DNA of 64,000 bases from Candidatus Woesearchaeota archaeon CG10_big_fil_rev_8_21_14_0_10_44_13 (GCA_002762985.1 PCXZ01000034.1:8431-72430); one strand, 5' to 3'; numbered from the stretch's first letter, positions 5,169 to 26,539 are shown. Notes: generated from the sequence alone by a model not told the origin. Made by a program: numbers and translations.

Positions 5169-5519
5169 TTATTTCTTTTTGTAGCTGAATTTTTTGTCAT
5201 AAGTTTTATGATCGATTATATCTAGAATAAATACGATTAACTCATTTTCATCTTTTCCAGAAGTCAATGTATAAAGCATTCTCCAAAAGTCCGGAAGTTC
5301 TATCCTAAACAGGTTATTTATGTTATAGTTTAGCTTATATTCTACAGGGGTTAGGGGCTTAGAGATAGGATCCCCATAATGTATATCTATTTTCACTAAT
5401 CTTATTTTTTGATTTATAGCGTCAAGAAGCATCCGGTCTAGTTTTGTTGTTTTTGTATTTAATAGATTATAGACTAGTTCTGCTTCTGGTGAAAATATGA
5501 CCTTGACTAGTTTTTTCAT
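5169..5519 (-). CDS. RelE/ParE-family type II toxin
   Basis: The C-terminal FWRMLYTLTSGKDENELIVFILDIIDHKTYDKKF matches the RelE/ParE signature (yRiiY...viLrighRk.vY). It lies immediately downstream of a small ORF on the same strand, the canonical antitoxin-toxin order. Confidence 0.55.
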   Translation of the reverse strand: MKKLVKVIFSPEAELVYNLLNTKTTKLDRMLLDAINQKIRLVKIDIHYGDPISKPLTPVEYKLNYNINNLFRIELPDFWRMLYTLTSGKDENELIVFILDIIDHKTYDKKFSYKKK

Positions 5520-5578
5520 GCAATATGTACAGAATTTAGTTTTTATAAGCCTTGCTCAAAAAATCCGAAAATCTTCCG

Positions 5579-5848
5579 CTATAACCGTAAACCTTCCGAA
5601 ATCGCTTTCTTTAATGATGGGTTTGTGTTGTGCACCCAGGTGATCCCTTTTAGACCAAAAGTTATCTTGTTGCTTTCCTCAAGATATCCCAGGATTGCCT
5701 TCAGTGTGTTGTGGTTCACCTGCTTCGGGAGCCTTCTTTTGAGCTCTGCTATTGTTATTACGCTATCGTCCATAGTTTTGAGAGCTTTCTCTACCATGAG
5801 GATGGTGTTCAATGTGGGGTAATGCTCTAGTTTTTGTTCGTGTAACAT
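5579..5848 (-). CDS. small DNA-binding-like protein, putative antitoxin of the RelE/ParE pair
   Basis: 89 aa, directly upstream of and co-oriented with the toxin. Its start codon lies inside the repeated motif ATGTTACAC, which recurs twice at 7389-7443. Confidence 0.45.
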   Translation of the reverse strand: MLHEQKLEHYPTLNTILMVEKALKTMDDSVITIAELKRRLPKQVNHNTLKAILGYLEESNKITFGLKGITWVHNTNPSLKKAISEGLRL

Positions 5849-6100
5849 TTTAATAACAAATATTTATCAATTAATACCTAATATATATTAACTTATATAT
5901 AAATGTTTTGGTTTGGTATGAGATAATATTAAGAAAATTTATATAAGCTCCGTTTTTCCTATGCTCAATGGCTATCCCCTACTTCCCGAACGACAACTGG
6001 TGGTCTTTGCCTTTCATGGCTTCTGTAATGACGATTGTTGCCATAGTTGTGGCATTCTATATCGCCTACAAGGAGGCGAAGAGGAAGGAGTTGAACTTAG
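5836..6100. repeat. direct repeat copy A (~250 bp): ATGTTACAC motif + A/T-rich promoter + first ~45 codons of an lgt-like gene
   Basis: About 90% nucleotide identity to 7499-7630 over the coding part (MAIPYFPNDNWWSLPFMASVMTIVAIVVAFYIAYKEAKRKEL vs MPIPYFPNDNWWSLPFMASVMTFVAIVVAFYIAYKEAKRKDL). The upstream aatttatataagc / ccgtttttcct blocks are also shared. Confidence 0.7.
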
Positions 6101-6291
6101 AAGAAAATTATATGATTAACCATTTCCACAAGGGGATGAAATCGATGCCATTTTCCTTTTTTTCCGTGTCTTTTGTCAAAATGACCAGTTCATTGACCTT
6201 GCTTAATTCCTGTTTGCACTCCATGAGAGCTTTTATTTCCCTTTCATCAATCTCATCAGTATATGAAACATTCATTGCCGTCAGGCTTTGA
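5968..6291 (+). pseudogene. truncated 5' fragment of an lgt-family gene (first ~45 codons intact, then reads into the antisense of the ATPase gene)
   Basis: The N-terminus is near-identical to the intact paralog at 7499..8320. Homology ends at ~6100, where the convergent ATPase gene's 3' end begins. Confidence 0.6.
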
Positions 6292-7388
6292 TCTTCATTT
6301 TTGATCATGAAATCCACTTCGCCTTTGTTTTTCCAGTAATAGACATCTTTTTCCCTTCTTTTTAATTCAATAAAAACCAGATTCTCAGCCAGCTTCCCTT
6401 CATCCCTTGAAAATTTAAAGCTGACGGAATTCCTCAATCCGTTGTCTATGCAGTAAATCTTCGATGGCAGCGTCTTCTGTTCCTTGAATGAGTAGGCGAA
6501 ATGGTCCAGTGTGAAAAATAAGAAAGCCTCTTTAAAATAAGATAGATAATCCCTTATGGTGTCATAGGATATTTTCAGAGAGTTTCTCAGACTTCTCAGG
6601 GAGATTATGCCTGTAGAGTTTGTTGTGAGAAATAATGCGAGATCCTTTGTCTTCTGTGTATTAAGATTATATCTGTCAATTATATCTTTATACAATATAT
6701 CATCAAAATACTGCTCCAGGATCCTAATCTTATATTCTTTCACCTTAAAGAAGATTTCAGGAAAACCGCCAAGAGCCATATACTCTTTCAAATGCTTCAG
6801 GATGAGCAGTTTTGTTTTTTCCAGGACTACCCCCCTCTTCAAATTATCCTTGCTGATTGAAATTTCTTTGAATAACAGGAATTCCTCAAAACCAAGCGGA
6901 AAAACCTCAAATGTGATGTTCCTGCCTGTCAAAAGAGTGGAATATTCTTTTCTCAACAGATGGGAACATGATCCTGAAATAACGAACTTGTCGTCAGTTT
7001 TTAGGTCATATTTTTTCCTTATCCATGATTCCCATCCCTCTTTTCTATGGATCTCGTCCAGGAAGATATATGCCTTCTTGTCCGGGTTTATGTCCCCCCT
7101 GTAGCCCGAGTAGATATCATCTAACGAATCATCCACAAGCTTTTTGTCCTCGAGATTCACAAACAAAATCTGCTCCGGCGATGCTCCCTTTTCCAGCAAT
7201 TTGGCTATCATCTGGTACATCAATGTGCTCTTCCCGGACCTCCTTACGCCCGTTATCACTGTTATCTCCCTTATCCTGACAGAATCGACCAGATGGCTGT
7301 ATTTCGGCCTGTTCTTGCCCTTCAATTCGTCTGGCAGGGACTTTTTCTCCCACCACTGGTTCCATTCGCTTAATTTGCTTATTTCCAT
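6108..7388 (-). CDS. AAA+ superfamily ATPase with a C-terminal DUF4143 (COG1373-type) domain
   Basis: Walker A GVRRSGKSTLMYQ and Walker B FLDEIH. The C-terminal ...GEVDFMIKNE... region is typical of the DUF4143 restriction-endonuclease-like fold. It is the only gene between the two ~250-bp direct repeats. Confidence 0.8.
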   Translation of the reverse strand: MEISKLSEWNQWWEKKSLPDELKGKNRPKYSHLVDSVRIREITVITGVRRSGKSTLMYQMIAKLLEKGASPEQILFVNLEDKKLVDDSLDDIYSGYRGDINPDKKAYIFLDEIHRKEGWESWIRKKYDLKTDDKFVISGSCSHLLRKEYSTLLTGRNITFEVFPLGFEEFLLFKEISISKDNLKRGVVLEKTKLLILKHLKEYMALGGFPEIFFKVKEYKIRILEQYFDDILYKDIIDRYNLNTQKTKDLALFLTTNSTGIISLRSLRNSLKISYDTIRDYLSYFKEAFLFFTLDHFAYSFKEQKTLPSKIYCIDNGLRNSVSFKFSRDEGKLAENLVFIELKRREKDVYYWKNKGEVDFMIKNEDQSLTAMNVSYTDEIDEREIKALMECKQELSKVNELVILTKDTEKKENGIDFIPLWKWLII

Positions 7389-7443
7389 ATGTTACGTTTA
7401 GGTGTAACATTAACTATATAAATGTTACGTTTTTGTGTAACAT
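7389..7443. promoter_or_regulatory. two copies of the palindrome ATGTTAC-N8-GTAACAT flanking a TATA box (ctatataaa), abutting the ATPase start codon
   Basis: Half-sites lie at 7389-7395/7404-7410 and 7422-7428/7437-7443. On the minus strand each copy reads ATGTTACAC..., the same 9-mer that starts the putative antitoxin gene at 5848. Confidence 0.5.
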
Positions 7444-7630
7444 TTTAGGCATTTATGCGGCTGACAACATTTATATAAAGCCCCGATTTCTTTGTTTCAT
7501 GCCGATCCCCTACTTCCCGAACGACAACTGGTGGTCTTTGCCTTTCATGGCTTCTGTGATGACCTTTGTTGCGATAGTCGTTGCGTTCTATATTGCCTAT
7601 AAAGAGGCGAAGAGGAAGGATCTGAATGTT
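7389..7630. repeat. direct repeat copy B (partner of 5836-6100)
   Basis: See copy A. Together the two copies bracket the 1.3-kb ATPase gene. Confidence 0.7.
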
Positions 7631-8320
7631 GATATGTTCTTCATGTCTGCACTTTGGATGGGTGCTGGTGCGTTGATCGGAGGATGGCTTGCTTTCTTTT
7701 TGACGCCTGGGCCGGGGTTCCTTAATATCTACCATCCTGGGGCGCATAGTGTGGGGGTGATTGTTGGAGGGGGGTTGGGAATAGCTGCTTATTGTTTGTA
7801 TAAAAAAGAGAATATAAAAAAAAAGTGTGGGAATCTAACAATATTCTTTACGAACCTTGCTGAAATATGGGGTTTAGGTGCCATGATAGGTACTTTTTTT
7901 TATAGGATTGGAGATTTCTTGAGCCATTGCATCGAGATTGGGACTCCGACTAACTTGCCTTGGGCAGTCATTGATAATGGAATAGCAAGGCATCCGATTA
8001 ATTTGTATTATTCACTTGCAGGGATAGTGATTTTTGTTATTTTAATTGAAATAAATAAAATTAAAATATCAAAAGAGGTTAAAGGATATACTCTAACCTG
8101 GTTTTTGATGATATATCCACTTTCAAGATTGTTTGTGGATTTATATAGGGTCCAATATTCAAAATTTTTTGGTTTAAGTGTTGATCAATTGATATTCTTA
8201 TTATTGACTATCCAATCTATAATTGCAATAATGGCTATCCACATATTATACAGATTTGAAAAAAGAAGACAGTTTGTTTATCCCCCATTAGATTTGATAA
8301 GATATTTGCTTAAAAAATAG
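7499..8320 (+). CDS. prolipoprotein diacylglyceryl transferase (Lgt) family membrane protein, paralog 1 (divergent)
   Basis: Multi-TM. Contains YRIGDFLSHCIEIG...WAVIDNGIARHPINLYYSLAG, which is collinear with the Lgt signature region (G-R-x-G-x-F...HP-x-QLY) seen in the three paralogs at 19.7-24.3 kb. The start is taken at the ATG matching the duplicated copy (7499), not the upstream ORF-track start. Confidence 0.55.
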   Translation: MPIPYFPNDNWWSLPFMASVMTFVAIVVAFYIAYKEAKRKDLNVDMFFMSALWMGAGALIGGWLAFFLTPGPGFLNIYHPGAHSVGVIVGGGLGIAAYCLYKKENIKKKCGNLTIFFTNLAEIWGLGAMIGTFFYRIGDFLSHCIEIGTPTNLPWAVIDNGIARHPINLYYSLAGIVIFVILIEINKIKISKEVKGYTLTWFLMIYPLSRLFVDLYRVQYSKFFGLSVDQLIFLLLTIQSIIAIMAIHILYRFEKRRQFVYPPLDLIRYLLKK

Positions 8321-8328
8321 TATAATTT

Positions 8329-9057
8329 TTATTTTAAACACACAAAATAATTATACAAACCGCTAGTATTTTCTTTTTTTAATATAACTTTAGGAGATTT
8401 AAATAAAATTAAAACAGAAGTAATGTAGGTGAGTAAACTCTGAGAGGTTATCGCAGTTCCTTGGGTGTAAACATCTACATTTTTAAAACCTTTATTTTTT
8501 ATAATATTAAGAAGTTCTTCCGTTTTAAATTCTTTTTTATGACTATTACAAAAAGGTTTTTTTGTGTTAAATAAGGCATCATTGAATTTTTTATTGGGCG
8601 TTGAAAGGATCATCACTCCTCCTTTTTTTAAAAGTTTGTAGACTTCTTTTAAGAATAGGCCATAATTATTTATATGTTCTATGGTTTCTAGAGAGACTAT
8701 CACATCAAATGACCCTTTAGCTAATTTTGTCTGCGTAGCTTCTGAACAGATAAAATGAAGATTTTTTGAGCGATATAGCTTTTTATTTCTTTTTATAGTG
8801 TCATGGTCCATATCAACTGCATAAACTTGGAATGCTTTTTTTGAGAGAATATTCGAACCATAGCCACACCCGCATGCAATATCCAAAACAATATCACATT
8901 TAGTTATATAATCTGAAGCAAAATTGTATCCCTGGGTATGAAAATTTTTCATTGTATTGAAAATGATATTTCTCCTTCCGTCCATATCAAATCGTTCTGT
9001 GCTCATCATCGGAGAGAATAATCGCCTTAATCCTTTATTGATTAGAGTAGCGCCCAT
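8329..9057 (-). CDS. class I SAM-dependent methyltransferase
   Basis: Motif I VLDIACGCGYGS, an acidic post-I residue and the motif-II-like FDVIVSLETIEHI. It is the last gene of the minus-strand radical-SAM cluster. Confidence 0.75.
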   Translation of the reverse strand: MGATLINKGLRRLFSPMMSTERFDMDGRRNIIFNTMKNFHTQGYNFASDYITKCDIVLDIACGCGYGSNILSKKAFQVYAVDMDHDTIKRNKKLYRSKNLHFICSEATQTKLAKGSFDVIVSLETIEHINNYGLFLKEVYKLLKKGGVMILSTPNKKFNDALFNTKKPFCNSHKKEFKTEELLNIIKNKGFKNVDVYTQGTAITSQSLLTYITSVLILFKSPKVILKKENTSGLYNYFVCLK

Positions 9058-9066
9058 ATCAAGACC

Positions 9067-10077
9067 TCATGAGCTCAAAAAAAATCTTAGTTTATGGCTG
9101 CTGTAATAACTCTCGCAAAGGGCATAGTTCTCTACGCAGGATTTATTGCATTCAACCAATCTTTTTTCGAACATGCCCTTATAGGTTTGGTAGTAATTTT
9201 TATCAATGCCCTTAATGTTGACGCCTAAAGACTTCGTTTCAGGGCATAAGGATATCTCACCACCCAAACCTACAGAGAAGAAATGCCTGCCTGCCCCGCA
9301 TCTCCAATTATATCTACCGCGTATAAACTCTTTCATATGTTCATAACAGTGTATAGGTTCGAATATGGGATAACCTTCTTTTTTCTTTTTTATTAAAGTA
9401 TCAAAAAGTAAATCTAATTCTTTTAATTGTTTTTTATTGAATACTGTATTTTTGCTATAAGATATGAATTTAGATGGGGGCTGTGTCACCAAACAGGTGG
9501 TTATTATTATGCCTTTACCAGTTATACGCTCAAGGAGAGGGATTACCTCGCGGGTGTTTAATCCAGTAAGAACAATATTTACTGCGATGAACAGGCCTTT
9601 TTTCATGGAAGCATATTCTAAGTCCTCAATAAGGCAAGGATTATCAGATAGCGTTTTCTTGGACTGTCTTGCTCTGTTTATGCCGTCTAAGGAGACCACC
9701 ATTGAATTCATGCCTGCATCTGCAAGCTTATCGATCAGCTCTTTTGATAATAAGGTGCCGTTTGTGTCCATTACTACAAACATATTTTGTTTATTGCAAT
9801 ATCTGGTCAATTCTACAATGTCCTTCCTTAAGGTAGGCTCTCCACCCATAAAATAAACCATATTGCAGCCTATCTCCTTTATCTTATCAATCCTCTCTTT
9901 TAAATCATTTAATGGGGGGTCCTTACTATTCTTTTTTATGAAACAATAAGAGCAGTCCAAGTTGCAGTTTCTTGTGACAAACAGACCTACGAACATTGGG
10001 GAAGGTCGGTTGAATAAGAATCTATTCAATGCAGGGATAATATTCGATTTGATAAATAATAATTTTTGTTTTTTCAT
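9067..10077 (-). CDS. radical SAM enzyme with a C-terminal SPASM/twitch Cys-rich domain (peptide/cofactor-maturase type)
   Basis: CxxxCxxC (CNLDCSYC) near the N-terminus and a GGEP motif. C-terminal cysteines (CGAGRH..., SLCPE, CNKSCVENYALC) are as expected for SPASM. Confidence 0.75.
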   Translation of the reverse strand: MKKQKLLFIKSNIIPALNRFLFNRPSPMFVGLFVTRNCNLDCSYCFIKKNSKDPPLNDLKERIDKIKEIGCNMVYFMGGEPTLRKDIVELTRYCNKQNMFVVMDTNGTLLSKELIDKLADAGMNSMVVSLDGINRARQSKKTLSDNPCLIEDLEYASMKKGLFIAVNIVLTGLNTREVIPLLERITGKGIIITTCLVTQPPSKFISYSKNTVFNKKQLKELDLLFDTLIKKKKEGYPIFEPIHCYEHMKEFIRGRYNWRCGAGRHFFSVGLGGEISLCPETKSLGVNIKGIDKNYYQTYKGMFEKRLVECNKSCVENYALCESYYSSHKLRFFLSS

Positions 10078-10088
10078 TTTATATGCCC

Positions 10089-11162
10089 TTAAAATGGTTT
10101 TCTGATCAGATCATAAATCTTGTTTGGAAGAATCATATTCAAAAAGAAATGAAAACCGTTAAACTCTTCAAAGGTTTTATTTTTTAAGCAATTTGAACAT
10201 ACTAAATCAGAAGTGATATCTTTTCGTTTGAATATCATCCTTCTTGCAGTTAAGTAGTTTGGACCGTTCCAAACACTAAAAAAACTTTGGTTAGAGATAT
10301 TACCGAAAGTGTGGTTATCCCCATATATCAAACAACAAGGGAATACGCCCCCATCAAAATTAATTGCCGATGAGACGTTCAGGTATTTACAGTTTTTTGG
10401 ATTTTTCAAATAAAGTTTGTATTCCTTATTAGAAGGGAACCAATCGCGATACTTCTTTAATTTAGTAGTATTATCTTCAAAAACCCCCTTACCCAGATCA
10501 GATCTTACTCTGGATAATAATAGCTTATCAAAACCTAGGCGAATATATTGTTTTTTGATGGTGTCAACTTCGTGCTCATTATATTTATTCACTATAAACT
10601 GGCAGATTATCTTAGGTCGTTTAATGCCATACCTAGTTTTGTAATAGTTTATTAAGCGTACATTCTTTAATACTTTGTTTAAATCGCCACCAATCCTATA
10701 TTTTTGATAAGTCTCCTGAGTCAAACCATCTAACGAAACTATGAGGTACCATAATCCGGATCTTACTAATTGTTTGCATGAGTTTCTGTCTAAAGTAGTC
10801 AGATTAGAGCTCGTTATAGGTATAACTAATTTTTTTCTGCTTAATTTGATAAATCTGAATAAATCCTTATTCAAGAAAGGTTCACCCCAGTTGTATAAGA
10901 ATAAGAATAAAGAATAATCCCCTATTTCACCCATTACCCTTTTGAATAAACTATATTTCAGGAATCCGCGTTTCATCCCCCTATCGCCCTGTCCGGTGGG
11001 GCATAAAGGGCACTTTAAATTACAAACATTCCCTGGGTCCATAAAAATATATAACGGATAAGCATTGACATATTCTTTATTAAATGAATGATAATAGGCT
11101 ATATTAATAGCATTCCAGAGTTTCTTATAAAAAACTTTTTTGAAGATAATTGTTGGTTTCAT
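10089..11162 (-). CDS. radical SAM enzyme with a C-terminal SPASM-like domain (second copy)
   Basis: CNLKCPLC (CxxxCxxC) and a GEP motif. C-terminal CCLIYGD...CSNC cysteines. Confidence 0.7.
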   Translation of the reverse strand: MKPTIIFKKVFYKKLWNAINIAYYHSFNKEYVNAYPLYIFMDPGNVCNLKCPLCPTGQGDRGMKRGFLKYSLFKRVMGEIGDYSLFLFLYNWGEPFLNKDLFRFIKLSRKKLVIPITSSNLTTLDRNSCKQLVRSGLWYLIVSLDGLTQETYQKYRIGGDLNKVLKNVRLINYYKTRYGIKRPKIICQFIVNKYNEHEVDTIKKQYIRLGFDKLLLSRVRSDLGKGVFEDNTTKLKKYRDWFPSNKEYKLYLKNPKNCKYLNVSSAINFDGGVFPCCLIYGDNHTFGNISNQSFFSVWNGPNYLTARRMIFKRKDITSDLVCSNCLKNKTFEEFNGFHFFLNMILPNKIYDLIRKPF

Positions 11163-11166
11163 TCGA

Positions 11167-12105
11167 TCAGCCTGAAAAGTTCAATTTTTGTCCTAACCCC
11201 TTAGACCCAATTGATTTTAATAGATAAAAAAATGATTTGAATCTCGAATTATTATTTTCTTGACTATTTATCATCTTAAATGATGCTGATATAATTAAAT
11301 AAAAAAATAAAATAATTAACCATACAAAGTATAATAACAATAAGAATAGGAATTTAAAAGATAAATGTTTCTTTAAGAAAATGTATAGGCTATTATTAAA
11401 ATTATATATGACGAATGGGGAAAGGGAATGTTTTATTGTTCCCCCCCATTTATGCAATATCTTTACATTATCAGCCCTCTTTGTTTTAAAGCCTTTGAGC
11501 CTCGCTCTTTTCCCATAATCAAAATCGTCAAAATAAAAGAGTCTTTCATCAAAATAACCAATTTCTTTTGCTTTATTATTATCAATCATCATTGCACACC
11601 CATCAACCATAGAATTCCATTTCGCCAGTTTTAAGGAATTTATGATTTTTAATAACCAAAAGCTCTCAAAGATTTTTTTATCTTGGTTATCCAGTAAATA
11701 TGAAGTTGGAAAGACTATTGCTGTGCTTTTATCATTATTAAAATAGTTTAAAATAAGGTGTAACATATTTCTATCAGTTATTATGGTATCCACATTCAAG
11801 AAAAAGGTATAATCAAACCCTTTGTTTATTGAATATTTCAACCCGTTATTATTTGCTTTTTGTAACCCTCTATTTTTTTTATTTTTCATAACTATCAGGC
11901 CATATCCCTTTGCGTAATCTAAAGTTTTATCCGAAGAAGCATTATCAATCAATAAAACTTTATAATTATTATACTCTAATTTAAATAAAGAAGATAAACA
12001 ACTTTTTATATACTTTTCACTATCCCAGCTTACAATTACAAATAAGATTTTTGGGTCATAACTATGTTTTTTTATTTTAAATGTCATTTTAGCCATCAAT
12101 ACCAC
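11167..12105 (-). CDS. family 2 glycosyltransferase
   Basis: N-terminal GT-A fold signatures (VIVSWDSEKY, LLIDNASSD, DxD-like NVDTI) and a C-terminal TM helix. It overlaps the upstream B12-rSAM gene by 10 nt. Confidence 0.7.
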   Translation of the reverse strand: MVLMAKMTFKIKKHSYDPKILFVIVSWDSEKYIKSCLSSLFKLEYNNYKVLLIDNASSDKTLDYAKGYGLIVMKNKKNRGLQKANNNGLKYSINKGFDYTFFLNVDTIITDRNMLHLILNYFNNDKSTAIVFPTSYLLDNQDKKIFESFWLLKIINSLKLAKWNSMVDGCAMMIDNNKAKEIGYFDERLFYFDDFDYGKRARLKGFKTKRADNVKILHKWGGTIKHSLSPFVIYNFNNSLYIFLKKHLSFKFLFLLLLYFVWLIILFFYLIISASFKMINSQENNNSRFKSFFYLLKSIGSKGLGQKLNFSG

Positions 12106-13616
12106 CCCGGCTTCGTGTTGTAATTGACCTTCCTTCCAAGCAAAGATTCGCTCAGCATCCCCCTGATGAACCTGAAAGACATCTTGGCCTTGTGCCCTGA
12201 CATCGAGCTGACGGCATTCTTCCTCCTTGAAGAACCGAGATTCAACCCTGCAAACTGCTCTTTCCTTGTCCTTATCCTAAGCTCATTGAGCATCATGTAA
12301 AACATCAATTGATTCCTTGACAGGTATTTCGACCTTGCGACAGGATTTATGAAATTATAGTACTTGAAATCCTTTATCTCTATAAGGTTTTTCTTCTCAA
12401 GCTCATCAAAATACCTTGTGCCTGGGTTCGGCGTCAAAGGCAATGGAACGCCGGTGTCAAAAGGTATCCCATTCAGCAGATCATAGAACCTTTTCAATGA
12501 CTGCCTTGTCTCATTAGGCAGCCCGTAAAGATATGTCGCTACAGAATAGACCTCAGGATATCTCCTGACTATCTCGAAAGCCTTTTTTATCGTGTCATAT
12601 GAATAGCCTTCCTTGTCAAGATACCTCAGGTCATCATTGTCTGTCCTCTCCACACCTATCATCACCTGCTTCAATCCGGCTTTGACCTGTTTCCCAAAAA
12701 TGCCTTTCTGCTCATCCCTGACTATGAAATCAGCCCTGAGCCATACTGAATGATCAATGTCCAGGCCGGTCTTTATCATCTCTTCAGCGAATTCCCTGTT
12801 CCATCTCGGATTCACGTTCCATGTGGGGTCAACCCAGCAGAAGGTCTTCCTGTTGAATTTCTCATGTAAATATGCAACCTCCTCAACTGTCCTTTTTACG
12901 GATTTGGTCCTGTAATGGGGCCTAACTTTCCCTGTTTTCATATCGAGCTGGCCCATCTGCTTCCATAGTATGCAGAAGTTACAGCTGCATGTGCAGCCCC
13001 TGCTGTGTTCAACAGCTACAAAATTCCTATGGTTCCTGCTCTTGCCGCCATAAGCGCCCATATCCAAAAGATCATATGCTGGCATAGGCAGGCTGTCAAG
13101 ATTTTTTATCAGGGGCCTTAACGATGTTTCAATCACTTTCCCTTTATCCTTGTATGCGATGCCATTTATCCTGCTCAAATCCTGCTTCGACCTGTCTTTT
13201 TTCAGTTCCCTGACAAGCTCAAGAAGTGTCTCTTCGCCCTCAAACCTCACAACAAAATCTATCTGGTGGTTATTGAGGGAATCGTTGGCCATGTATGTGA
13301 AATAAGTCCCTCCGGCGATCACAATAAGCTCTGGAAACATTGATCTGGCGATATTGACAAGCTTAAAAGCCTCGTTCACAGAGACAGTCTCTTCGCCAAT
13401 ACAAAGTACATCCGGCTTCTCCCTTTTCAATGCTTCTGGGACGCTTTTCCAGCCGATCTTCAGGGCAGGAAAGTCTATTATGCCAATTTTTATATCATCA
13501 ATATTCTCCCTGAGAACCGCGGCCATTGATGCGAAAGCCAGGGGCTGCCAAAAAGAGCTGTTTTCAGAATGGAACGGCCACATATACCTGGGCGGCCTGA
13601 CAAATAGTATCTTCAT
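12096..13616 (-). CDS. B12-binding (class B) radical SAM enzyme
   Basis: The N-terminal Rossmann-like cobalamin-binding domain (KILFVRPP...VLCIGEETVS...IAGG) is followed by the radical SAM core with CxxxCxxC (CTCSCNFC). 506 aa. Confidence 0.8.
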   Translation of the reverse strand: MKILFVRPPRYMWPFHSENSSFWQPLAFASMAAVLRENIDDIKIGIIDFPALKIGWKSVPEALKREKPDVLCIGEETVSVNEAFKLVNIARSMFPELIVIAGGTYFTYMANDSLNNHQIDFVVRFEGEETLLELVRELKKDRSKQDLSRINGIAYKDKGKVIETSLRPLIKNLDSLPMPAYDLLDMGAYGGKSRNHRNFVAVEHSRGCTCSCNFCILWKQMGQLDMKTGKVRPHYRTKSVKRTVEEVAYLHEKFNRKTFCWVDPTWNVNPRWNREFAEEMIKTGLDIDHSVWLRADFIVRDEQKGIFGKQVKAGLKQVMIGVERTDNDDLRYLDKEGYSYDTIKKAFEIVRRYPEVYSVATYLYGLPNETRQSLKRFYDLLNGIPFDTGVPLPLTPNPGTRYFDELEKKNLIEIKDFKYYNFINPVARSKYLSRNQLMFYMMLNELRIRTRKEQFAGLNLGSSRRKNAVSSMSGHKAKMSFRFIRGMLSESLLGRKVNYNTKPGWY

Positions 13617-13672
13617 TGCGCTATAACCCCCATTATCCTTTTTTTAGTATGATATTATCCTGAATTTAAAAT

Positions 13673-14152
13673 TCATTTCCTCAATACCTTATTTATATTC
13701 TTAAAAAACGTGTATGCATTATCGAGCGATTCTTTTGCGGGTTCTTTGTTGGCTTGGGGCAGTTTCTGATAAGTAAACTCTCCCCTTTTCCCTTTCTCTC
13801 TTGAAAAAATACCTAAAAGCTCTTCTGCCCTTATTATCATTTTTTTGTAGATTTTCAACAATTCAACATCAAGTTTGCCTGTCTTGACCAGATACATCTC
13901 AAAAGCACCAATAGTCTTCCTGTGGACTTCAGGAGACCCCGTTTTTATATCCCCCTCCATCAATATCGCCTTGGCAGAGTTAAATATGCAATAATAAGAA
14001 TTGCTTATCACCAAGCTGTAAAAAGTAAAGTTTTTCTCCAGCTTAAACTGCTCTTTCTGCAGTTTTGGATTATTTGAGATGTCAAAAAGTATCTGGGCTG
14101 CTGCAAGCTCATTTTCTGCCCTTTGTAGATATAACTCCGCTTCATCTTTCAT
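13673..14152 (-). CDS. HEPN-domain protein (toxin-like partner of the upstream nucleotidyltransferase)
   Basis: The N-terminus YLQRAENELAAAQILFDIS is HEPN-like. The gene lies 1 nt downstream of an MNT-type nucleotidyltransferase gene on the same strand. Confidence 0.55.
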   Translation of the reverse strand: MKDEAELYLQRAENELAAAQILFDISNNPKLQKEQFKLEKNFTFYSLVISNSYYCIFNSAKAILMEGDIKTGSPEVHRKTIGAFEMYLVKTGKLDVELLKIYKKMIIRAEELLGIFSREKGKRGEFTYQKLPQANKEPAKESLDNAYTFFKNINKVLRK

Positions 14153-14153
14153 T

Positions 14154-14759
14154 CTATTTTCCTCTTATCAGATTAAGATATTCAATAAATCCATAATAGA
14201 CGATATTGTTTTTGTATATCTGTTTTCCCAGATTTTCATAATCAACTTTCAGCATTTCCAAGAATTCATCTCTTGTCATGATATGATAGTCTATACGCAG
14301 AATCTCTCTTCTTTTTATTGTCTCCAGATAAGGGGATACTTCTTTTTTTGTCTTTTCTGATTCGACAATGATTGCTATATCCAGATCTGATTTCTCTTTT
14401 GCCTTGCCCTTGACATGGCTGCCGAATACGATTAAAATGAAAAATTCAGTATACCCCGATACCTTTGCCTGTATGCGCTTTAGCACATCCACCGGCATCT
14501 TGTTTTTGCTTATCTCCAGCTCATTTACAAGGTTTAAGTAGGATAATGTCAGGTTATTGTCCAAATTCAAAAAATAGGTCGTCACATCCCCTGTCTCTTT
14601 TGTCTTTATCAGGCCCTGCTTTTTGAATTCCTTTAACGCAATCTGGATCAGGTTGTTTGATTTCTGCCTAAGCTGCTCTTTTATCTGCCTGAAGGTGAGC
14701 CCTATAGATATGTCTCTTTTAAAACAGCCTATGATTTTTATCTGCTCTTTTGTCAGCAT
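14154..14759 (-). CDS. minimal nucleotidyltransferase (MNT) protein with an N-terminal winged-helix region; HEPN/MNT pair
   Basis: FILIVFGSHVKGKAKEKSDLDIAIIV is the GS-x(n)-D-x-D polymerase-beta-type NTase motif. It is adjacent to the HEPN gene. Confidence 0.65.
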   Translation of the reverse strand: MLTKEQIKIIGCFKRDISIGLTFRQIKEQLRQKSNNLIQIALKEFKKQGLIKTKETGDVTTYFLNLDNNLTLSYLNLVNELEISKNKMPVDVLKRIQAKVSGYTEFFILIVFGSHVKGKAKEKSDLDIAIIVESEKTKKEVSPYLETIKRREILRIDYHIMTRDEFLEMLKVDYENLGKQIYKNNIVYYGFIEYLNLIRGK

Positions 14760-14766
14760 TTTAGTT

Positions 14767-14804
14767 TACCTATTTTTTGGTAATTCACTACCTATTTTTT
14801 GGTA
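14767..14804. promoter_or_regulatory. perfect 16-nt direct repeat tacctattttttggta x2 (6-nt spacer) in the promoter region of the MNT/HEPN operon
   Basis: Repeats at 14767-14782 and 14789-14804. Each unit has palindromic ends (TACC...GGTA) around an A/T core and lies 8-45 nt upstream of the minus-strand ATG at 14759. Confidence 0.4.
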
Positions 14805-14829
14805 TTATAAAAAGTTTATGGTTTTTAAC

Positions 14830-15678
14830 TCAATTCCTCCTATCAACGACAAACCTCGCGATCTCCCCCAATATCTCGGCTTTCCCTTCAAAGACAGACA
14901 AGGCTTTGATAGCATCCCACATATAATTCTTCATCATCTCCCTTGATTTCTCAGCTCCGTAATGCGTGACAAAGGTATTCTTCTTCTCATCCTTCTGCGT
15001 GTCCTTGCCCAATTCCTCAGGAGTGCTCTCGATATCCAGCAGATCGTCCTTTATCTGGAATACCAATCCGAGATTCTCTGCGTACCTGAGCAAGGCCTTG
15101 GCCTCCTTTTCAGGGGCTTTCGCCTTTATGCACGCTGCCTTAACGGCTCCGATGAACAAAGCGCCTGTCTTATGCTCGTGGATGTATTTCAGGGTCTCAA
15201 AATCGATCTTCTTGTTCATGGTCTCAAGGTCCACTGTCTGGCCGCCGGCAACTCCCTGCGAACCCAGGCAGGACGAGATCTCATGCGCCACATCGATATC
15301 ATCAACGATCTCTATCGCCCTCAGGATGAGGCTTATCGCGGCAAGATCAGCGATATCCTCCCCAAAGACCTTATGGCAGCACGGCTTTCCCCTTCTTATC
15401 GTCGCATCATCCATGCATGGCAGGTCATCAAGTATCAATAAAGCAGTGTGTGTCATCTCCAAAGCGCAGGCAGTGGCCATCATATCTTCCTTATCGACAC
15501 CGAAAAGCTCTGCGACTGCCAATGCTATTATGGGCCTTATCCTCTTGCCGCCTGCAAATATAGAATGCCTCATCGCCTTATGCAATGACTGGGGGTAAGC
15601 GCTTTCAGGAGGCAGGAACCTATTCAATGACTTCTCTACCAATTCCTTCCTCTCTTTGAGATAGCTCTGCAATTCCAT
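14830..15678 (-). CDS. trans-polyprenyl diphosphate synthase (GGPP synthase-type)
   Basis: First Asp-rich motif LILDDLPCMDDATIRRGKP and second Asp-rich motif FQIKDDLLD; 282 aa. Confidence 0.85.
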   Translation of the reverse strand: MELQSYLKERKELVEKSLNRFLPPESAYPQSLHKAMRHSIFAGGKRIRPIIALAVAELFGVDKEDMMATACALEMTHTALLILDDLPCMDDATIRRGKPCCHKVFGEDIADLAAISLILRAIEIVDDIDVAHEISSCLGSQGVAGGQTVDLETMNKKIDFETLKYIHEHKTGALFIGAVKAACIKAKAPEKEAKALLRYAENLGLVFQIKDDLLDIESTPEELGKDTQKDEKKNTFVTHYGAEKSREMMKNYMWDAIKALSVFEGKAEILGEIARFVVDRRN

Positions 15679-16435: not shown

Positions 16436-19400
16436 GTGGATTTAGATATAAGGGGCTTTTGCCCTGGGAAGAGCAAGAAAGCTCAGCTTGCAGCTTTCAT
16501 CATAATAGGGATTCTCGTGCTGGCCATGGCCGGTGCCATACTCTATTTAGTCACTTCTGCGAAAAAGACAGAGGCAGAGCTGATTGTCGAGAAAGGCATG
16601 GAGGTGAGCCTTGACGAGACGAAGATAAGGGAATACATTACCGCGTGCATACAGAAAGAAGGCAGGGGCCTGGTCGACAAGATAGGGCTGCAGGGCGGAA
16701 CACTGAACTTGGACCAGTTCAGGTATTATTTCAATATGAAATATAATTATCATTGTTATGCCCAAGATGGTTTCGTCTGTGTTAACAGGCTTGTGACAAG
16801 GAATTCCATGGCCCAGGAGCTAAATGCAGCATTGAAGAACAGCCTCAAGAAATGCGTGAATTTCGAGAATTTCAGGAAACAGGGATATGATGTGAAAGAG
16901 CAGGACATGGATGTCAAGACAATTGTAGGGGTGGATGATGTTGATTTTGAGGTGATATATCCCATAACAATCTCCAAGGACAACAATGAGGTCATCCTGA
17001 AAGATTTCAGCGAAAAAGTGGATTCAAGGCTCGGCTTGATGTATGACCTGGCTGTAAAAATAGTCTACCATCACTCTATGGGCGGGGAATTTGACGAGGA
17101 CAGATGGATGCTTGAACATGGCCAGATAAGCATCTCCAAACACAAGCCCTATCCTGACATCATCTATTCGCTGAGCATCAGGGATGCTGCAACCAAAAAA
17201 GAGGAATCCTTCAATTTCGCAATCAAGGGCAGATACTCAATCTATGAGATAGGGCAGCCCACAAAAACCCTTGTAAGCAAAGGATATTGCAGGACAAAGG
17301 ACAATAACTGCTATGTCAATGTAGATCAGGGAGACTGCGCAAAATCATTAGGAGAATGGAGCAATGCCCCTTTCCAGGACGCCCAATGCAGAGGCATGGG
17401 CACCATGCCAGAGCCGGAATGCAAAGGCGATGAATGCAAGAATTGCGGGAAAAGGGAGAACGGCGAATCATGGTGCGAATATGAAGGCATTGTGAGCCCC
17501 GGCTTCTCATTGGTCGGGTCGAGGCATTACAAGGGAAGCTGCATAAACGGCAAGATCTATTACACAGAATGCAGGGATTACCGTGAGGAGATATGCCTGG
17601 AGAACACAGACATAGATGTGCCTAAGGCAGTATGCAGGCCTAACAGATGGCAGGACTGCGCAGAGCAGGGGAATGAGGAGGATTGCATGGACAATTCTGC
17701 AAGGGACTGCTGGTGGTCTGGCTGGCTTGAACTCAACAGGCAGGGCAAGTGCCTGCCTTACATCCCCCCTGGATTTGCGCATTGGCAGCAGAACGGCCAG
17801 GAAGTTTGCGCCATGGCGAATGAGCAGTATGACTGCGGCTATTATACCTGCGGCAAATCATGGGTCGATTCGAGCGCAATATACTGCTACAATATGGGTG
17901 ACTGCGGGAATTACAGGAACACAGAAGATGAGATAACAAAACAGGGATTCTTCAATTTCGACAGCACGCCTTCAGATTATGTCTACCTGACAGATGATCA
18001 GCTGAAAACAGAGATGAAGCCAAAGCTTAAGATGGAAGCGGCGTATGCCCCTGTGCTTGACGGAAAAGAGTATGAAAACCCCCATGGAACAATAAACGAA
18101 TTGATCAATAATGAAGTGAGGTATTTTGATGAGGTTTCAAACTGGAGATTCGAGGATTTCAGGACTAATTACCTGCTTACTGGAAAGATTTACATCCATG
18201 TCCTGCAGACAGCATTGTGCATGCCGTGGCAGGCGCCATACAAAGGCGATGACTGCAAGGAATGCGGCAGCCTGAACAGGCCCTGCACAGAATACAAATG
18301 CAGGAGTTTGGGGCAGACATGCACTTATGAGGAAGTCAATGGAATAGGCTTCTGCTATGATTATTCTGAGAAGGATGATATCCCTCCTAAGATTTTCTTT
18401 GATGGTGTTGTGTTCGGTGATGTGAAGATAGAGAGGGATGTTTTCGGAAAAACAGTTGGTTACAAGTTCAGCAAGCCGCTTGAGCCGAACACAATTGTGG
18501 TATTCTCGATAAATGCGACAGAACCTGTGAAATGCAAAGTAACGTCATTGCCGCAGCCTGAATTCGACCAGATACCCCTTCCAGCGCCCGGCACATTCCA
18601 GGATTATTACACTTTTGTTGATATTGTGCCTAAGGCCCCTGATTTCAGGATAGGCCTGATGAAGTCTTTAGGGGTGAATAACTTCCTTGAGCTCGGCACA
18701 TTTGAAACATACGACGATAAGTTCAAAAAGATAATCTATGATGCCAGGAAATTCGTCAAGGAATTCAAAGGGGGCATGAACAAGGAATTTGCAGAGCAGA
18801 ACATACAGAGGCTTGAGAATATGTGGAATGATGACATCGCACCCAACATAAAGAAAGCCTTTGAAAACCTGGGCGATACACTGAGGGATGTGGCAGTGCA
18901 GACAGAGCAGGGCAACAAGCTTGTTTTCTTCAAATGCATAGACAAGGCAGGGAATGAGAACACTGAAGACCTGTTCATAAAATACAGGATAGGGAAGGAT
19001 GAAAGCGCCCCTGTACTGATGGCTGCATTGCCTGTCAACAACACGAACATAAGCAGTTTTGGAAATCTTTCGCTCTATACGAATGAGCCTGCGAACTGCA
19101 GGTTTGCAGGAAGCGACATGCCTTATGACTCCATGCCCTTGAAGACAGAGACAGAATGCACTCTGCCTCTGATGATTGGAGCATTTAAGCTCTATGAATG
19201 CACACCAAGGGATATCAATGCTTCAAGCGACATAAGAACAAACATATATGTCAGGTGCAAGGATAATCCATTAAAAGTCGAAAGGTACATATTCAATCTC
19301 ACGAAAGGCGATGCCCTCATTCATCTTTTCCCTGAAAATGCCATGACAATAGACCTCAGGGAGAATGACAGGATAATAAACCTCACAATGGAGTTCGAAC

Positions 19401-19702
19401 AATACTTCACATTCCCCAAGGTGAAAGATATAATGGTGAATGCGGATGAGTATGAGATGATAATACAGTCCATAAGGGATGATATTGACTGCGGGTTCTC
19501 GGAAACGCCGGGATTGAGCGTCAGCCAGATGGTACCCATGGCCTGTGAAAAAGGCGGCCTTGAAGGCACATACCAGTGCAGGCATAAGGTCAATGTCCAG
19601 AATAACATGCTCTTTGAGATAGCATGCAGAGGCAGATTCCAGGAAGAGAAAAGGAACACAGCAAAAGAGAGCGCAGTATTGAGCTATCTAAACCTTCCTT
19701 GA
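16436..19702 (+). CDS. giant Cys-rich secreted protein, paralog A (1088 aa), with a class-III/type-IV-pilin-like signal peptide
   Basis: N-terminal ...KSKKAQLAAFIIIGILVLAMAG. Paralogous to 26540..30277 through shared blocks (RHYKGSCINGKIYYTECRDYREEICLE, VCRPNRWQDC, CTEYKCRSLGQTCTYEEVNGIGFCY, CIDKAGNENTEDL). It has more than 60 cysteines. Confidence 0.7.
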   Translation: MDLDIRGFCPGKSKKAQLAAFIIIGILVLAMAGAILYLVTSAKKTEAELIVEKGMEVSLDETKIREYITACIQKEGRGLVDKIGLQGGTLNLDQFRYYFNMKYNYHCYAQDGFVCVNRLVTRNSMAQELNAALKNSLKKCVNFENFRKQGYDVKEQDMDVKTIVGVDDVDFEVIYPITISKDNNEVILKDFSEKVDSRLGLMYDLAVKIVYHHSMGGEFDEDRWMLEHGQISISKHKPYPDIIYSLSIRDAATKKEESFNFAIKGRYSIYEIGQPTKTLVSKGYCRTKDNNCYVNVDQGDCAKSLGEWSNAPFQDAQCRGMGTMPEPECKGDECKNCGKRENGESWCEYEGIVSPGFSLVGSRHYKGSCINGKIYYTECRDYREEICLENTDIDVPKAVCRPNRWQDCAEQGNEEDCMDNSARDCWWSGWLELNRQGKCLPYIPPGFAHWQQNGQEVCAMANEQYDCGYYTCGKSWVDSSAIYCYNMGDCGNYRNTEDEITKQGFFNFDSTPSDYVYLTDDQLKTEMKPKLKMEAAYAPVLDGKEYENPHGTINELINNEVRYFDEVSNWRFEDFRTNYLLTGKIYIHVLQTALCMPWQAPYKGDDCKECGSLNRPCTEYKCRSLGQTCTYEEVNGIGFCYDYSEKDDIPPKIFFDGVVFGDVKIERDVFGKTVGYKFSKPLEPNTIVVFSINATEPVKCKVTSLPQPEFDQIPLPAPGTFQDYYTFVDIVPKAPDFRIGLMKSLGVNNFLELGTFETYDDKFKKIIYDARKFVKEFKGGMNKEFAEQNIQRLENMWNDDIAPNIKKAFENLGDTLRDVAVQTEQGNKLVFFKCIDKAGNENTEDLFIKYRIGKDESAPVLMAALPVNNTNISSFGNLSLYTNEPANCRFAGSDMPYDSMPLKTETECTLPLMIGAFKLYECTPRDINASSDIRTNIYVRCKDNPLKVERYIFNLTKGDALIHLFPENAMTIDLRENDRIINLTMEFEQYFTFPKVKDIMVNADEYEMIIQSIRDDIDCGFSETPGLSVSQMVPMACEKGGLEGTYQCRHKVNVQNNMLFEIACRGRFQEEKRNTAKESAVLSYLNLP

Positions 19703-20422
19703 TTTCACAAGATAGATTGCCGATGAAACTGCAAATACCACTATGCTTACCCACTGTGAAAATGTAAGGCCCAGATAGTTGAATGGGTATTCCCTCAAGA
19801 ACTCTATCATGAATCTCCCTGCTGAGTAGACCATAAGGTATTTCAGGAATATCTGGCCGAAGAATCTCCTATTGTGCCATCCGGAATAAAGATGGGCGAA
19901 CAGAACGATGTTGAAAAATGAGAGGTAAAGGCCGACAGGATGTCTTGCAGTGCCGTCAGGAAGCTTGACTGCCCACCATACGCCTGTTATCCTGCCCAAT
20001 GCGTCATTCACAAAGAAGCACCCTATCCTGGCGAAGAAGATCTCCAATGGGATCGCCATGCCCCAGAAATCCAGATGCTTCCAGAAATTATAACGGTTTA
20101 TTCTTGTGTAGACATACCCCAATAAGATTCCGCCGAACAACCCCCCATAAAAGACAAAGCCCCTGTTGAATATGCCTAAGATGCCGGCGCTGCTGCATGC
20201 TTCGTAAGGCCCGATATAGAACAGCAGTTTAGAGCCCAGCCATGCCCCTGCAAAGACCCACAATGATTCAATTATCATTATCTTCGGATGGATCTTCTGC
20301 CTGCGGCCCATGCGGATCAGGAACAGCACACCTACCGCCATGCCTATGAAAGCGAAAAGAGAATGGGGGGGCGTCTTTATCAGCCAGAATTCCCACATCT
20401 CCTTCGGGATTAAAGGGATCAT
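19688..20422 (-). CDS. prolipoprotein diacylglyceryl transferase (Lgt) family protein, paralog 2
   Basis: FARIGCFFVNDALG...RHPVGLY aligns with the Lgt G-R-x-G-N-F-x-N and HPxQLY regions. The start is taken at the ATG (MIPLIPKEMW), which matches the paralogs' MIPYEI/MIEYEM starts. Confidence 0.75.
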   Translation of the reverse strand: MIPLIPKEMWEFWLIKTPPHSLFAFIGMAVGVLFLIRMGRRQKIHPKIMIIESLWVFAGAWLGSKLLFYIGPYEACSSAGILGIFNRGFVFYGGLFGGILLGYVYTRINRYNFWKHLDFWGMAIPLEIFFARIGCFFVNDALGRITGVWWAVKLPDGTARHPVGLYLSFFNIVLFAHLYSGWHNRRFFGQIFLKYLMVYSAGRFMIEFLREYPFNYLGLTFSQWVSIVVFAVSSAIYLVKSRKV

Positions 20423-20577
20423 TTTAGCCTCCAAAAACCAATAGTGAACATGATGGCGCCTATGGCTGCAATTGACAGGGAGAATGACTTGATTGAGCTT
20501 ATGTGCAGGAAGCCGAAATCGATCAAAAAACCTCCTGCTATGACAAGAGCGAGATTAAGCGTGTTTTTCCCCATCAT
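20419..20577 (-). CDS. 52-aa two-helix membrane peptide (MMGKNTLNLALVIAGGFLIDFGFLHISSIKSFSLSIAAIGAIMFTIGFWRLK), translationally coupled to lgt paralog 2
   Basis: Not in the ORF track because it is under 60 aa. I translated the reverse strand by hand. The TGA stop overlaps the Lgt ATG (ATGA), and the sequence is hydrophobic with Gly-zipper-like GxxxG/AxxxG. Confidence 0.3.
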   Translation of the reverse strand: MMGKNTLNLALVIAGGFLIDFGFLHISSIKSFSLSIAAIGAIMFTIGFWRLK

Positions 20578-20626
20578 CCAAAGAAGTTGCCCGATTTATA
20601 TAAAATAATCGTTTTTCAGGAAGCGG

Positions 20627-21199: not shown

Positions 21200-21229
21200 G
21201 AGATTGTTATAGCAAGGGAGTATTTAAAT

Positions 21230-22204: not shown

Positions 22205-22287
22205 TCAGGGCATTAAACGAACATTGTTTATATATTTTTTTGTTGAAAATTGATAATATTAATAAAACAGGGAGGATATCCCAGGAT

Positions 22288-23244: not shown

Positions 23245-23313
23245 ACCGGAACCAAAAATCATAAGATTAATATATCCGCTCAAAAAATCCATTGGGATTG
23301 AAAAGGGCTGAAA

Positions 23314-26462: not shown

Positions 26463-26539
26463 ACAGGTACATGATTATAGATAATCATATCGCAACCGGA
26501 ATATCACGATCAAAACACAATCAAAAAAGAGCAGATAAG

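Follow-up and report, generated by a model that had tools for sequence, protein, structure and literature searches.

Positions 8329-15678 of a 64,000-nucleotide stretch of DNA (the window) from Candidatus Woesearchaeota archaeon CG10_big_fil_rev_8_21_14_0_10_44_13 (GCA_002762985.1, PCXZ01000034.1:8431-72430) carry eight co-directional open reading frames (ORFs) on the minus strand: a prenyl diphosphate synthase, an MNT-type nucleotidyltransferase, a HEPN-domain protein, a cobalamin-binding radical S-adenosylmethionine (SAM) enzyme that we call B12a, a family 2 glycosyltransferase (GT2), two further radical SAM enzymes (rSAM/SPASM and rSAM1) and a SAM-dependent methyltransferase (MTase). These eight genes are a mosaic, a patchwork of parts and not a single pathway headed by the prenyl synthase. 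We favour the view, at a probability of roughly 45%, that B12a and the genes behind it belong to a hypervariable locus tailoring a lipid-anchored surface glycoconjugate or a lipoprotein anchor. The unusual feature of the locus is the coupling of a B12-dependent radical SAM (B12-rSAM) enzyme with Lgt-family genes in archaea; the rest resembles known radical SAM-assisted tailoring of lipids and glycans. A preliminary description of the sequence had given the same gene order and coordinates, and its domain assignments agree with Pfam (Methyltransf_11, Radical_SAM, Radical_SAM with SPASM, Glycos_transf_2, B12-binding with Radical_SAM, HEPN, NTP_transf_2/Polbeta and polyprenyl_synt); its idsA-like label, its second SPASM domain and its placing of a geranylgeranyl diphosphate (GGPP) synthase (GGPPS) at the head of the cluster did not hold.

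Synteny was compared across 13 archaeal B12a loci with usable flanks, the window among them. Twelve of the 13 have an Lgt-family gene (PF01790) no more than 6.5 kb from B12a; it is mostly convergent, at the end of the string, and in most of the 20-kb loci it is the sole gene of its family. The copy in the window, LGT_a, is the positional equivalent of the convergent LGT genes in loci L003, L004, L093, L094, L097 and L098. What stands between B12a and LGT ranges from nothing (L093: B12a, LGT) through a single family 4 glycosyltransferase (L003 and L094: B12a, GT4, LGT) to longer strings (L004: B12a, B12b-like, GT2, rSAM, LGT; L097 and L098: B12a, rSAM1, B12b, LGT), where B12b denotes a second B12-rSAM family. 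The order in L002 is LGT, LGT, GGPPS, B12a, rSAM1, B12b, B12b, and in the window GGPPS, MNT, HEPN, B12a, GT2, rSAM/SPASM, rSAM1, MTase, LGT. Because the content of this slot differs across relatives, B12a and the Lgt-like gene can be regarded as its fixed flanks. We propose a conserved core that would consist of the BchE/HpnJ-like B12a and a convergent Lgt-family membrane lipid transferase, with rSAM1 as a further member in the closest relatives.

Glycosyltransferases (GT2 or GT4) are present in eight of the 13 loci, B12b in seven and rSAM1 or an rSAM1-like gene in six; MNT, HEPN, rSAM/SPASM and this MTase are found in the window only. rSAM1 directly follows B12a in L002, L097 and L098 and is itself followed there by B12b, a position that in the window is taken by the MTase, which may be a functional replacement. 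B12b proteins (L002 6050-8701, L097 11051-12421, L098 7073-8383, L004 8531-9799) are 420-456 amino acids long and score best against HpnJ, at 93-127 bits. The nearest model for the GT4 beside B12a in L003 is monoglucosyl-diacylglycerol synthase (111/400; here and below, score and cut-off in bits).

Spacing from B12a to the MTase gene is -10, 4, 11 and 9 bp, the GT2 gene overlapping the B12a stop by 10 nt. As all these distances are overlaps or gaps of at most 11 bp, the five genes are probably one operon. Between the prenyl synthase and the remaining string lie a 70-bp gap and the MNT-HEPN pair. A/T-rich TATA-like boxes can be seen by eye 5' of GGPPS, MNT and B12a, which is weak evidence for three transcription units.

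Base composition divides the string further. Against a reference of 37 window genes (mean GC 46.1 ± 2.5%), per-gene GC ranges from 26.3 to 49.4%, and the string falls into three compositional layers: native GGPPS and B12a, which match the reference; the inserted MNT-HEPN pair, which is atypical; and foreign low-GC genes, with z = -8 for GT2 and z from -4 to -8 across GT2, rSAM/SPASM, rSAM1 and MTase. GC at third codon positions (GC3) shows the same pattern. LGT_a is itself split: its GC is 46.7% over 7433-7800 and drops to 29.8% over 7801-8320, so that the foreign segment extends over about 7.8-12.1 kb and ends inside LGT_a. This segment looks like a cassette swapped in between conserved flanks. 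A repeat search of the window found no terminal repeats at the low-GC cassette or at the MNT-HEPN insertion, and flanking duplicates only at an AAA_14 ATPase insertion described below.

The three layers would also fit a region with no shared pathway, in which unrelated neighbours have accumulated in a variable, defence-island-like setting; candidate defence or toxin-antitoxin (TA) genes are inserted on both sides, a duplication marks recent insertion, and none of the relatives has rSAM/SPASM, MTase or this GT2. We hold this to be distinctly unlikely, given the tight B12a-to-MTase spacing, the recurrence of B12a with the Lgt-like gene, with rSAM1 and with a glycosyltransferase in diverged relatives, and the co-occurrence of rSAM/SPASM, MTase and glycosyltransferase genes in glycan loci of other organisms.

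B12a has an N-terminal B12-binding domain and a radical SAM domain, placing it in class B of the superfamily with predicted use of cobalamin, and its C208, C212 and C215 are invariant in 30 homologs. Its best NCBIfam model is BchE (TIGR02026, 219.8/481, over nearly full length) and the second-best curated model is HpnJ (TIGR03471, 103/577.6). Both identities were considered and set aside: the BchE score is under the cut-off and the window holds no photosynthesis genes, so that B12a is better described as a sister family; the HpnJ score is far lower than its cut-off and no shc or hpn gene lies nearby. No model named GrsA/B, Gmm, GDGT (glycerol dialkyl glycerol tetraether) methylase or Ted is among the 22 NCBIfam matches of B12a. 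Orthologs share 52-65% identity in Woesearchaeota/Nanobdellota, and homologs of about 40-45% identity occur in Planctomycetota and other bacteria. More distant relatives in Bathyarchaeota (about 32% identity) were checked for Ted orthology by way of their neighbour, which is a GH3/AMP-binding protein and not the AttH-like protein looked for. A metagenome scan with B12a gave seven loci, mostly bacterial and short. Searches of PDB sequences with B12a, GT2 and the two small radical SAM enzymes matched generic superfamily members only, such as AprD4, TokK, OxsB, MoaA, BlsE and BtrN.

The other constant element, the Lgt family, is represented by four proteins in the window, all within 17 kb and all well above the PF01790 cut-off of 24.9 bits (Table 1). 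One of them, LGT_c, aligns with Escherichia coli Lgt (PDB 5azb) at E = 3.4e-11 and retains R143, D129, G154, Y235, R239 and E243, in common with the bacterial Lgt pathway. According to a published analysis no archaeal Lgt homologs have been identified, and AliA/AliB were proposed instead (PMC12462473); four clear family members beside archaeal marker genes stand in contrast to that absence. Since archaeal markers share the contigs, contamination is an unlikely source of the Lgt genes. Nop56/58 and fibrillarin are encoded within the window, and MCM, TBP and PCNA are present on contigs of relatives; the source organism is a DPANN archaeon, Candidatus Woesearchaeota. A second assembly (L001) carries the same locus. 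Rfam and tRNA scans of the window gave no match.

Of the two small radical SAM enzymes, which the preliminary description had both called SPASM proteins, only the one we name rSAM/SPASM carries that domain; for rSAM1 even a threshold of E<=10 gives no match to SPASM. The cysteines invariant in the rSAM1 family are C38, C42 and C45 together with C260, C278, C310 and C314, the four C-terminal ones being consistent with a single auxiliary cluster of the twitch-like kind. The family is rare, with about 14 members found solely on archaeal (Woesearchaeota-type) contigs, and it scores about 80 bits against NirJ2 and MoaA and 67.1/450 against Tes (NF045702). rSAM/SPASM scores 104/380 against a tungsten-cofactor maturase, reaches 21.4/450 for Tes and has a C-terminal domain nearest to that of BtrN; beyond a Ca. 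Woesearchaeota CG10 entry that matches it at 100% identity, its nearest relative shares only 42% identity, and its relatives are scattered over phyla. For GT2 the best NCBIfam model is a rhamnosyltransferase (46/201), and its PDB matches are generic GT2 enzymes.

The genomic surroundings of five rSAM/SPASM relatives were read, two of these relatives being about 25% identical, and all five are sugar or glycan loci with glycosyltransferases, nucleoside diphosphate (NDP)-sugar epimerases and dehydratases, Wzy, or AglB/Alg13/Alg14. They comprise a JGI contig (GT2, GT1, GT4, epimerases, two methyltransferases and an AftD-like GT-C); a Desulfobacter locus (Wzy, UDP-glucose dehydrogenase, two GT4 genes and DegT); a Diapherotrites locus (AglB/STT3, Alg13/14, glycosyltransferases, a methyltransferase and a B12-rSAM whose best model is HpnJ); the rfb plasmid pBHWA1 of Brachyspira; and an Azospirillum plasmid (rfbC and GT41). 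Together with the glycosyltransferases in eight of 13 loci and the Lgt gene near B12a, these contexts favour the glycolipid or glycan-carrier modification that the preliminary description had put forward, in contrast to the two other parts of its interpretation, the tailoring of lipid tails fed by GGPPS and the maturation of a ribosomally synthesised and post-translationally modified peptide (RiPP).

In the RiPP proposal rSAM/SPASM, rSAM1, B12a and the MTase would act together on a precursor peptide. RiPP clusters typically combine an rSAM/SPASM enzyme, a B12-rSAM and a methyltransferase, models of PapB, StsB, WgkB, PqqE and ApyD are matched weakly, and like the maturases PapB, StsB and PqqE the enzymes here join a radical SAM core to a Cys-rich C-terminal auxiliary-cluster domain. 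Unlike those maturases, they score far under the cut-offs (PapB 51/340, StsB 59/625 and a further model 91/750), and the rSAM/SPASM homologs lie in glycan loci. That no obvious precursor ORF is present was noted already, and a search for small ORFs bears this out, with none in 8329-15678 and intergenic gaps of 1-71 bp. Only 37-46 residues precede the CxxxCxxC motif, which leaves no room for a RiPP recognition element (RRE) domain. This proposal fails because precursor, RRE domain, protease and exporter gene are all missing from the cluster, and we regard it as highly improbable. Anaerobic sulfatase maturases, raised before as a non-lipid family into which the radical SAM enzymes might cleanly fall, are absent from the matches listed (the best 25 of 80 for rSAM1 and the best 25 of 34 for rSAM/SPASM), and no sulfatase gene lies nearby; the enzymes are under every curated cut-off, whether of a lipid family or not, Tes, BchE, HpnJ and PapB included.

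Gene anatomy, base composition, synteny and family contexts are direct observations; substrates and chemistry we infer by analogy with HpnI/HpnJ, Cds and the glycan loci. The B12a-to-MTase operon would tailor a membrane-anchored surface molecule, either a glycolipid or lipid-linked glycan or a lipoprotein anchor. GT2 would glycosylate a lipid-linked acceptor; radical chemistry on the added sugar might be the task of the two small radical SAM enzymes, for instance oxidation, epimerisation or rearrangement; B12a could catalyse a cobalamin-dependent C-methylation or ring rearrangement of the kind proposed for HpnJ and Cds; the MTase may add an O- or N-methyl group; and the Lgt-like enzyme would handle the lipid moiety. 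Turnover of the cassette would then diversify the cell surface.

The closest parallels in chemistry are HpnI (a GT2)/HpnK/HpnJ and Sulfolobus Cds, in which a glycosyltransferase glycosylates a membrane lipid before the attached sugar is rearranged by a radical SAM enzyme (PMC13459092). The resemblance includes the models themselves, as HpnJ is not only a high-ranking model for B12a but the best for B12b and for the Diapherotrites B12-rSAM. The locus differs in its scores (93-154 here against 578 bits), in having no hopanoid or calditol genes, and in its two extra non-B12 radical SAM enzymes, MTase and Lgt-family gene, in an organism that is probably unable to synthesise membrane lipids of its own. 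Variable glycan loci (O-antigen, capsule and N-glycan, among them the rfb plasmid of Brachyspira hyodysenteriae and the AglB locus of Diapherotrites) likewise combine glycosyltransferase, rSAM/SPASM and MTase genes, and the cassette here is, as they are, low in GC and strain-variable between conserved flanks; unlike them, it is without genes for NDP-sugar synthesis, flippase, polymerase or oligosaccharyltransferase, and its flanks are a B12-rSAM and an Lgt-like gene. A third parallel is the mycobacterial and corynebacterial Lnt-Ppm1, which links lipoprotein acylation to a GT2 polyprenol-phosphate mannose synthase, and which the coupling of genes for a lipoprotein enzyme, a GT2 and a prenyl synthase here resembles.

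Several observations weigh against a surface-tailoring locus of this kind. Every enzyme scores below the cut-offs of the characterised families, and all the chemistry is therefore by analogy. The modules of L002, L097 and L098 are without a glycosyltransferase, so that sugar chemistry is not constant in the core, and the link of rSAM/SPASM to glycans is drawn from five contexts, two of them distant. A lipobox pattern was found in none of the 59 ORFs of the window. Y26, N146 and G154 are required residues of E. coli Lgt according to mutagenesis; LGT_c has Cys in place of both N146 and E151, Tyr in place of H103 and Trp in place of Y26, with the result that this Lgt-like family may not perform the canonical reaction. 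The motif RxGNFxNxExxG reads RxGCFxxGCCxG in LGT_c and, by eye, much the same in LGT_d; LGT_a and LGT_b differ. Scores against the Lgt equivalog TIGR00544 are 106.6 and 83.6 bits, the former only narrowly under its cut-off of 118.9.

The prenyl synthase had been placed at the head of the cluster as an idsA-like GGPP synthase. It is a short-chain (E)-prenyl diphosphate synthase of bacterial IspA/CrtE type: its best curated models are FPPsyn (268.4/275) and CrtE (261.2/460), with the archaeal IdsA_Meth (140.9/468) and GGPP_syn (123.9/500) far behind, and its first Asp-rich motif reads DDLPCMDD, longer by two inserted residues as in bacterial and plant enzymes. Ala at -5 and Leu at -4 are compatible with a C20 product, and farnesyl diphosphate (FPP) or GGPP is predicted. 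In relatives, too, the link to the radical SAM genes is largely absent, as GGPPS adjoins B12a in the window and in L002 only (two of the 13 archaeal loci). The prenyl synthase is a housekeeping neighbour and not a dedicated cluster head; it may supply FPP or GGPP for polyprenol carriers.

These results bear on the proposal that the prenyl synthase feeds GGPP into archaeal isoprenoid lipids whose tails the radical SAM enzymes then tailor by methylation, cyclisation, coupling or desaturation. Class B radical SAM enzymes are known modifiers of archaeal lipid tails (bioRxiv 10.1101/2025.10.20.683597); Tes/GDGT-MAS, GrsA/B, Gms/Gmm, the GDGT methylases and Ted belong to the same superfamily, and B12-dependent enzymes acting on archaeal lipids are often clustered with lipid genes. 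The best models of B12a and B12b (BchE, HpnJ, HpnR and a ladderane-lipid B12-rSAM), the lipid-handling family of the constant Lgt neighbour, and the arrangement in L002, where GGPPS immediately precedes B12a and no TA pair intervenes, would agree with such a role. The linkage is nevertheless confined to two loci, in one of which the inserted MNT-HEPN pair separates the genes; both Tes scores are far under the cut-off, and the PDB match to GDGT-MAS (7tol) spans the radical SAM core only. Neighbours of B12a are glycosyltransferases, frequent in the slot, and Lgt-like genes and not genes of lipid synthesis, and the rSAM/SPASM family lies in glycan loci. Woesearchaeota, moreover, reportedly have neither GGGPS nor DGGGPS, and their isoprenoid genes are reported to be of bacterial type (PMC8421398), which argues against de novo ether-lipid tailoring. 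We judge tail tailoring unlikely, and adjacency of the prenyl synthase, being lineage-specific, should not be used for annotating these enzymes as isoprenoid-lipid enzymes.

A different substrate is suggested by the bacterial homologs of B12a. In 32 bacterial loci (L007-L083) a PD40 beta-propeller gene lies directly downstream of the homolog, and in 21 of these a DUF2085 membrane protein comes next. The PD40 N-terminus in 29 of the 32 has a charged n-region, a hydrophobic segment and an [LIVMA][LAIV]AC motif, typically LLWHxLAC[TV]ESPM, and so resembles a lipobox signal, the calls being made by a regular-expression pattern and not a trained predictor. The B12a homolog, PD40 and DUF2085 genes look like an uncharacterised three-gene module of Planctomycetota and other phyla.

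B12a could on this evidence be directed at lipoproteins, acting on the lipid-bearing N-terminal cysteine region of Lgt-lipidated proteins or on their lipid donor, with the other slot genes as accessory decoration. The association spans two domains of life, operonic with lipobox-like PD40 genes in bacteria and beside Lgt-family genes in 12 of 13 archaeal loci; in L003 and L034 the Lgt-like gene has a neighbour whose product carries a textbook lipobox (ITGC, IAGC). Predictions make lipoproteins prevalent in DPANN (PMC12462473). We know of no description of lipoprotein N-termini being modified by a radical SAM enzyme, nor of any such enzyme in a lipoprotein pathway. No Lgt-family gene was detected near the B12a homolog in about 45 bacterial loci, and archaeal loci are without a PD40 homolog, to which is added the lack of lipobox proteins in the window. 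A 523-amino-acid protein encoded upstream of B12a in L097 and L098 is unrelated to the bacterial PD40 neighbour (hhalign probability 0.1%) and has no Pfam or NCBIfam match. We consider lipoprotein-directed action of B12a unlikely. Of doubtful standing, too, is the broader proposal that DPANN possess true Lgt-family transferases (as paralogs with a Cys-substituted motif) coupled to a B12-rSAM with lipobox-operonic bacterial orthologs, which would constitute an unrecognised radical SAM step on lipoproteins or lipid anchors shared by Planctomycetota and DPANN, joined in DPANN to a hypervariable, surface-diversifying decoration cassette.

For the favoured surface-tailoring locus, the tie of a B12-rSAM to Lgt-like genes in archaea, and in bacteria to lipobox proteins, hints at a so far uncharacterised radical reaction whose target would be a lipoprotein or lipid anchor. 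Woesearchaeota are regarded as lipid scavengers that rely on other cells, which makes the building and variation of their surface central to their biology. The slot behaves like a variable region of the O-antigen type, which suggests selection by hosts or viruses on a lipid-anchored surface molecule.

Table 1. Positions of the features discussed, counted from the first nucleotide of the window; scores in bits
Feature	Position	Strand	Evidence	GC (%)
AAA_14/DUF4143 ATPase insertion	5956-7626; gene 6108-7388	- (gene)	Pfam AAA_14 and DUF4143; PADLOC PDC-S01 (candidate defence family) 354
LGT_a, Lgt-family membrane protein, convergent on the string	7433-8320	+	Pfam LGT 76.5	
Compositionally foreign segment, about 4.3 kb	7801-12100		GC profiles, per-gene GC and GC3; LGT_a 3' part, MTase, rSAM1, rSAM/SPASM, GT2	
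MTase, class I SAM-dependent methyltransferase, last gene of the string	8329-9057	-	Pfam Methyltransf_11 72; no curated family reached	29.9
rSAM1, radical SAM with four-Cys twitch-like C-terminal domain	9067-10077	-	Radical_SAM	36.2
rSAM/SPASM enzyme	10089-11162	-	Radical_SAM; PF13186 SPASM 45.2 (cut-off 21.5)	32.0
GT2 glycosyltransferase with hydrophobic C-terminal segment	11167-12105	-	Pfam Glycos_transf_2 68	26.3
B12a, cobalamin-binding class B radical SAM, BchE/HpnJ-like	12096-13616	-	PF02310 47.3 (cut-off 32.1); PF04055 48.8	45.3
HEPN-domain protein, putative toxin half	13673-14152	-	Pfam HEPN 23.3 (cut-off 22)	37.3
MNT-type nucleotidyltransferase, N-terminal winged helix-turn-helix (wHTH), putative antitoxin half	14154-14759	-	Pfam Polbeta and NTP_transf_2	36.3
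Perfect 16-nt direct repeat, two copies 22 nt apart	14767-14782; 14789-14804		Repeat family D13	
Short-chain (E)-prenyl diphosphate synthase, bacterial IspA/CrtE type (FPP or GGPP synthase)	14830-15678	-	Pfam polyprenyl_synt 172	49.4
Envelope genes recurring with B12a in relatives	16436-24303		Surface protein, Lgt paralogs, radical SAM, 190-amino-acid membrane protein	
Cys-rich 1088-amino-acid surface protein	16436-19702	+	Paralogous to 26471-30277	
Lgt-family paralog (LGT_b)	19688-20434	-	Pfam LGT 128.5	
Lgt-family paralog (LGT_c)	22159-23244	+	Pfam LGT 156.7	
Lgt-family paralog (LGT_d)	23314-24303	+	Pfam LGT 157.2	

The MNT and HEPN genes, which lie 1 bp apart and are absent from all relatives, are a putative TA pair inserted upstream of B12a, separating the core from the prenyl synthase. 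Between a TATA-like box and the MNT start codon sit the two copies of TACCTATTTTTTGGTA, which are likely to be the operator of the pair. In their adjoining nucleotidyltransferase and HEPN genes, atypical GC, absence from relatives and repeated operator-like sites upstream, they are like the type VII system MntA-HepT; they are unlike it in the MntA model score (35.1/60), the marginal HEPN match and the N-terminal wHTH extension of MNT. In PADLOC, MNT matches the candidate defence systems PDC-M05A and PDC-S09 only, and the HEPN protein has no match.

On the other side of the string a 140-nt direct duplication of the 5' end of LGT_a (5956-6095 and 7487-7626, 86% identical, repeat family D1) flanks the ATPase gene, and it came along with the insertion of that gene; alignment and translation show that a truncated Lgt N-terminus remains as ORF 5968-6291. 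From the duplicated copy, the true start of LGT_a is probably the ATG at 7499.

Beyond the prenyl synthase, large Cys-rich paralogous surface proteins are encoded at 16436-19702 (p1088) and 26471-30277 (p1268), with a smaller one of 338 amino acids (p338) at 46139-47155. A p1088-like protein lies by B12a or the Lgt-like gene in seven of the 13 archaeal loci. At the N-termini of p338, p1088 and p1268 a K[KR][AG]Q motif precedes a hydrophobic helix, as it does in class III (pilin-type) signals of archaea. A second minus-strand cluster at 19688-22204 contains a radical SAM enzyme with C-terminal Cys motifs (21230-22204), LGT_b, a 190-amino-acid membrane protein (20627-21199) containing a stretch rich in Ser and Thr as well as a C-terminal CDSCSSC motif, and a 52-amino-acid hydrophobic ORF (20419-20577); it could be a peptide or protein modification unit. 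Directly after LGT_c and LGT_d, a secreted protein of 351 amino acids (24322-25377) combines the extreme Cys run GGGGGCCDCSECRCICCESCLNCDKGCRKDCGC with a metal-binding motif of MopE type. At the far side of the duplicated Lgt fragment, between it and a CTP synthase gene, two small co-directional low-GC genes on the minus strand (5169-5848; 116 and 89 amino acids, with no family match) may be another TA or mobile pair.

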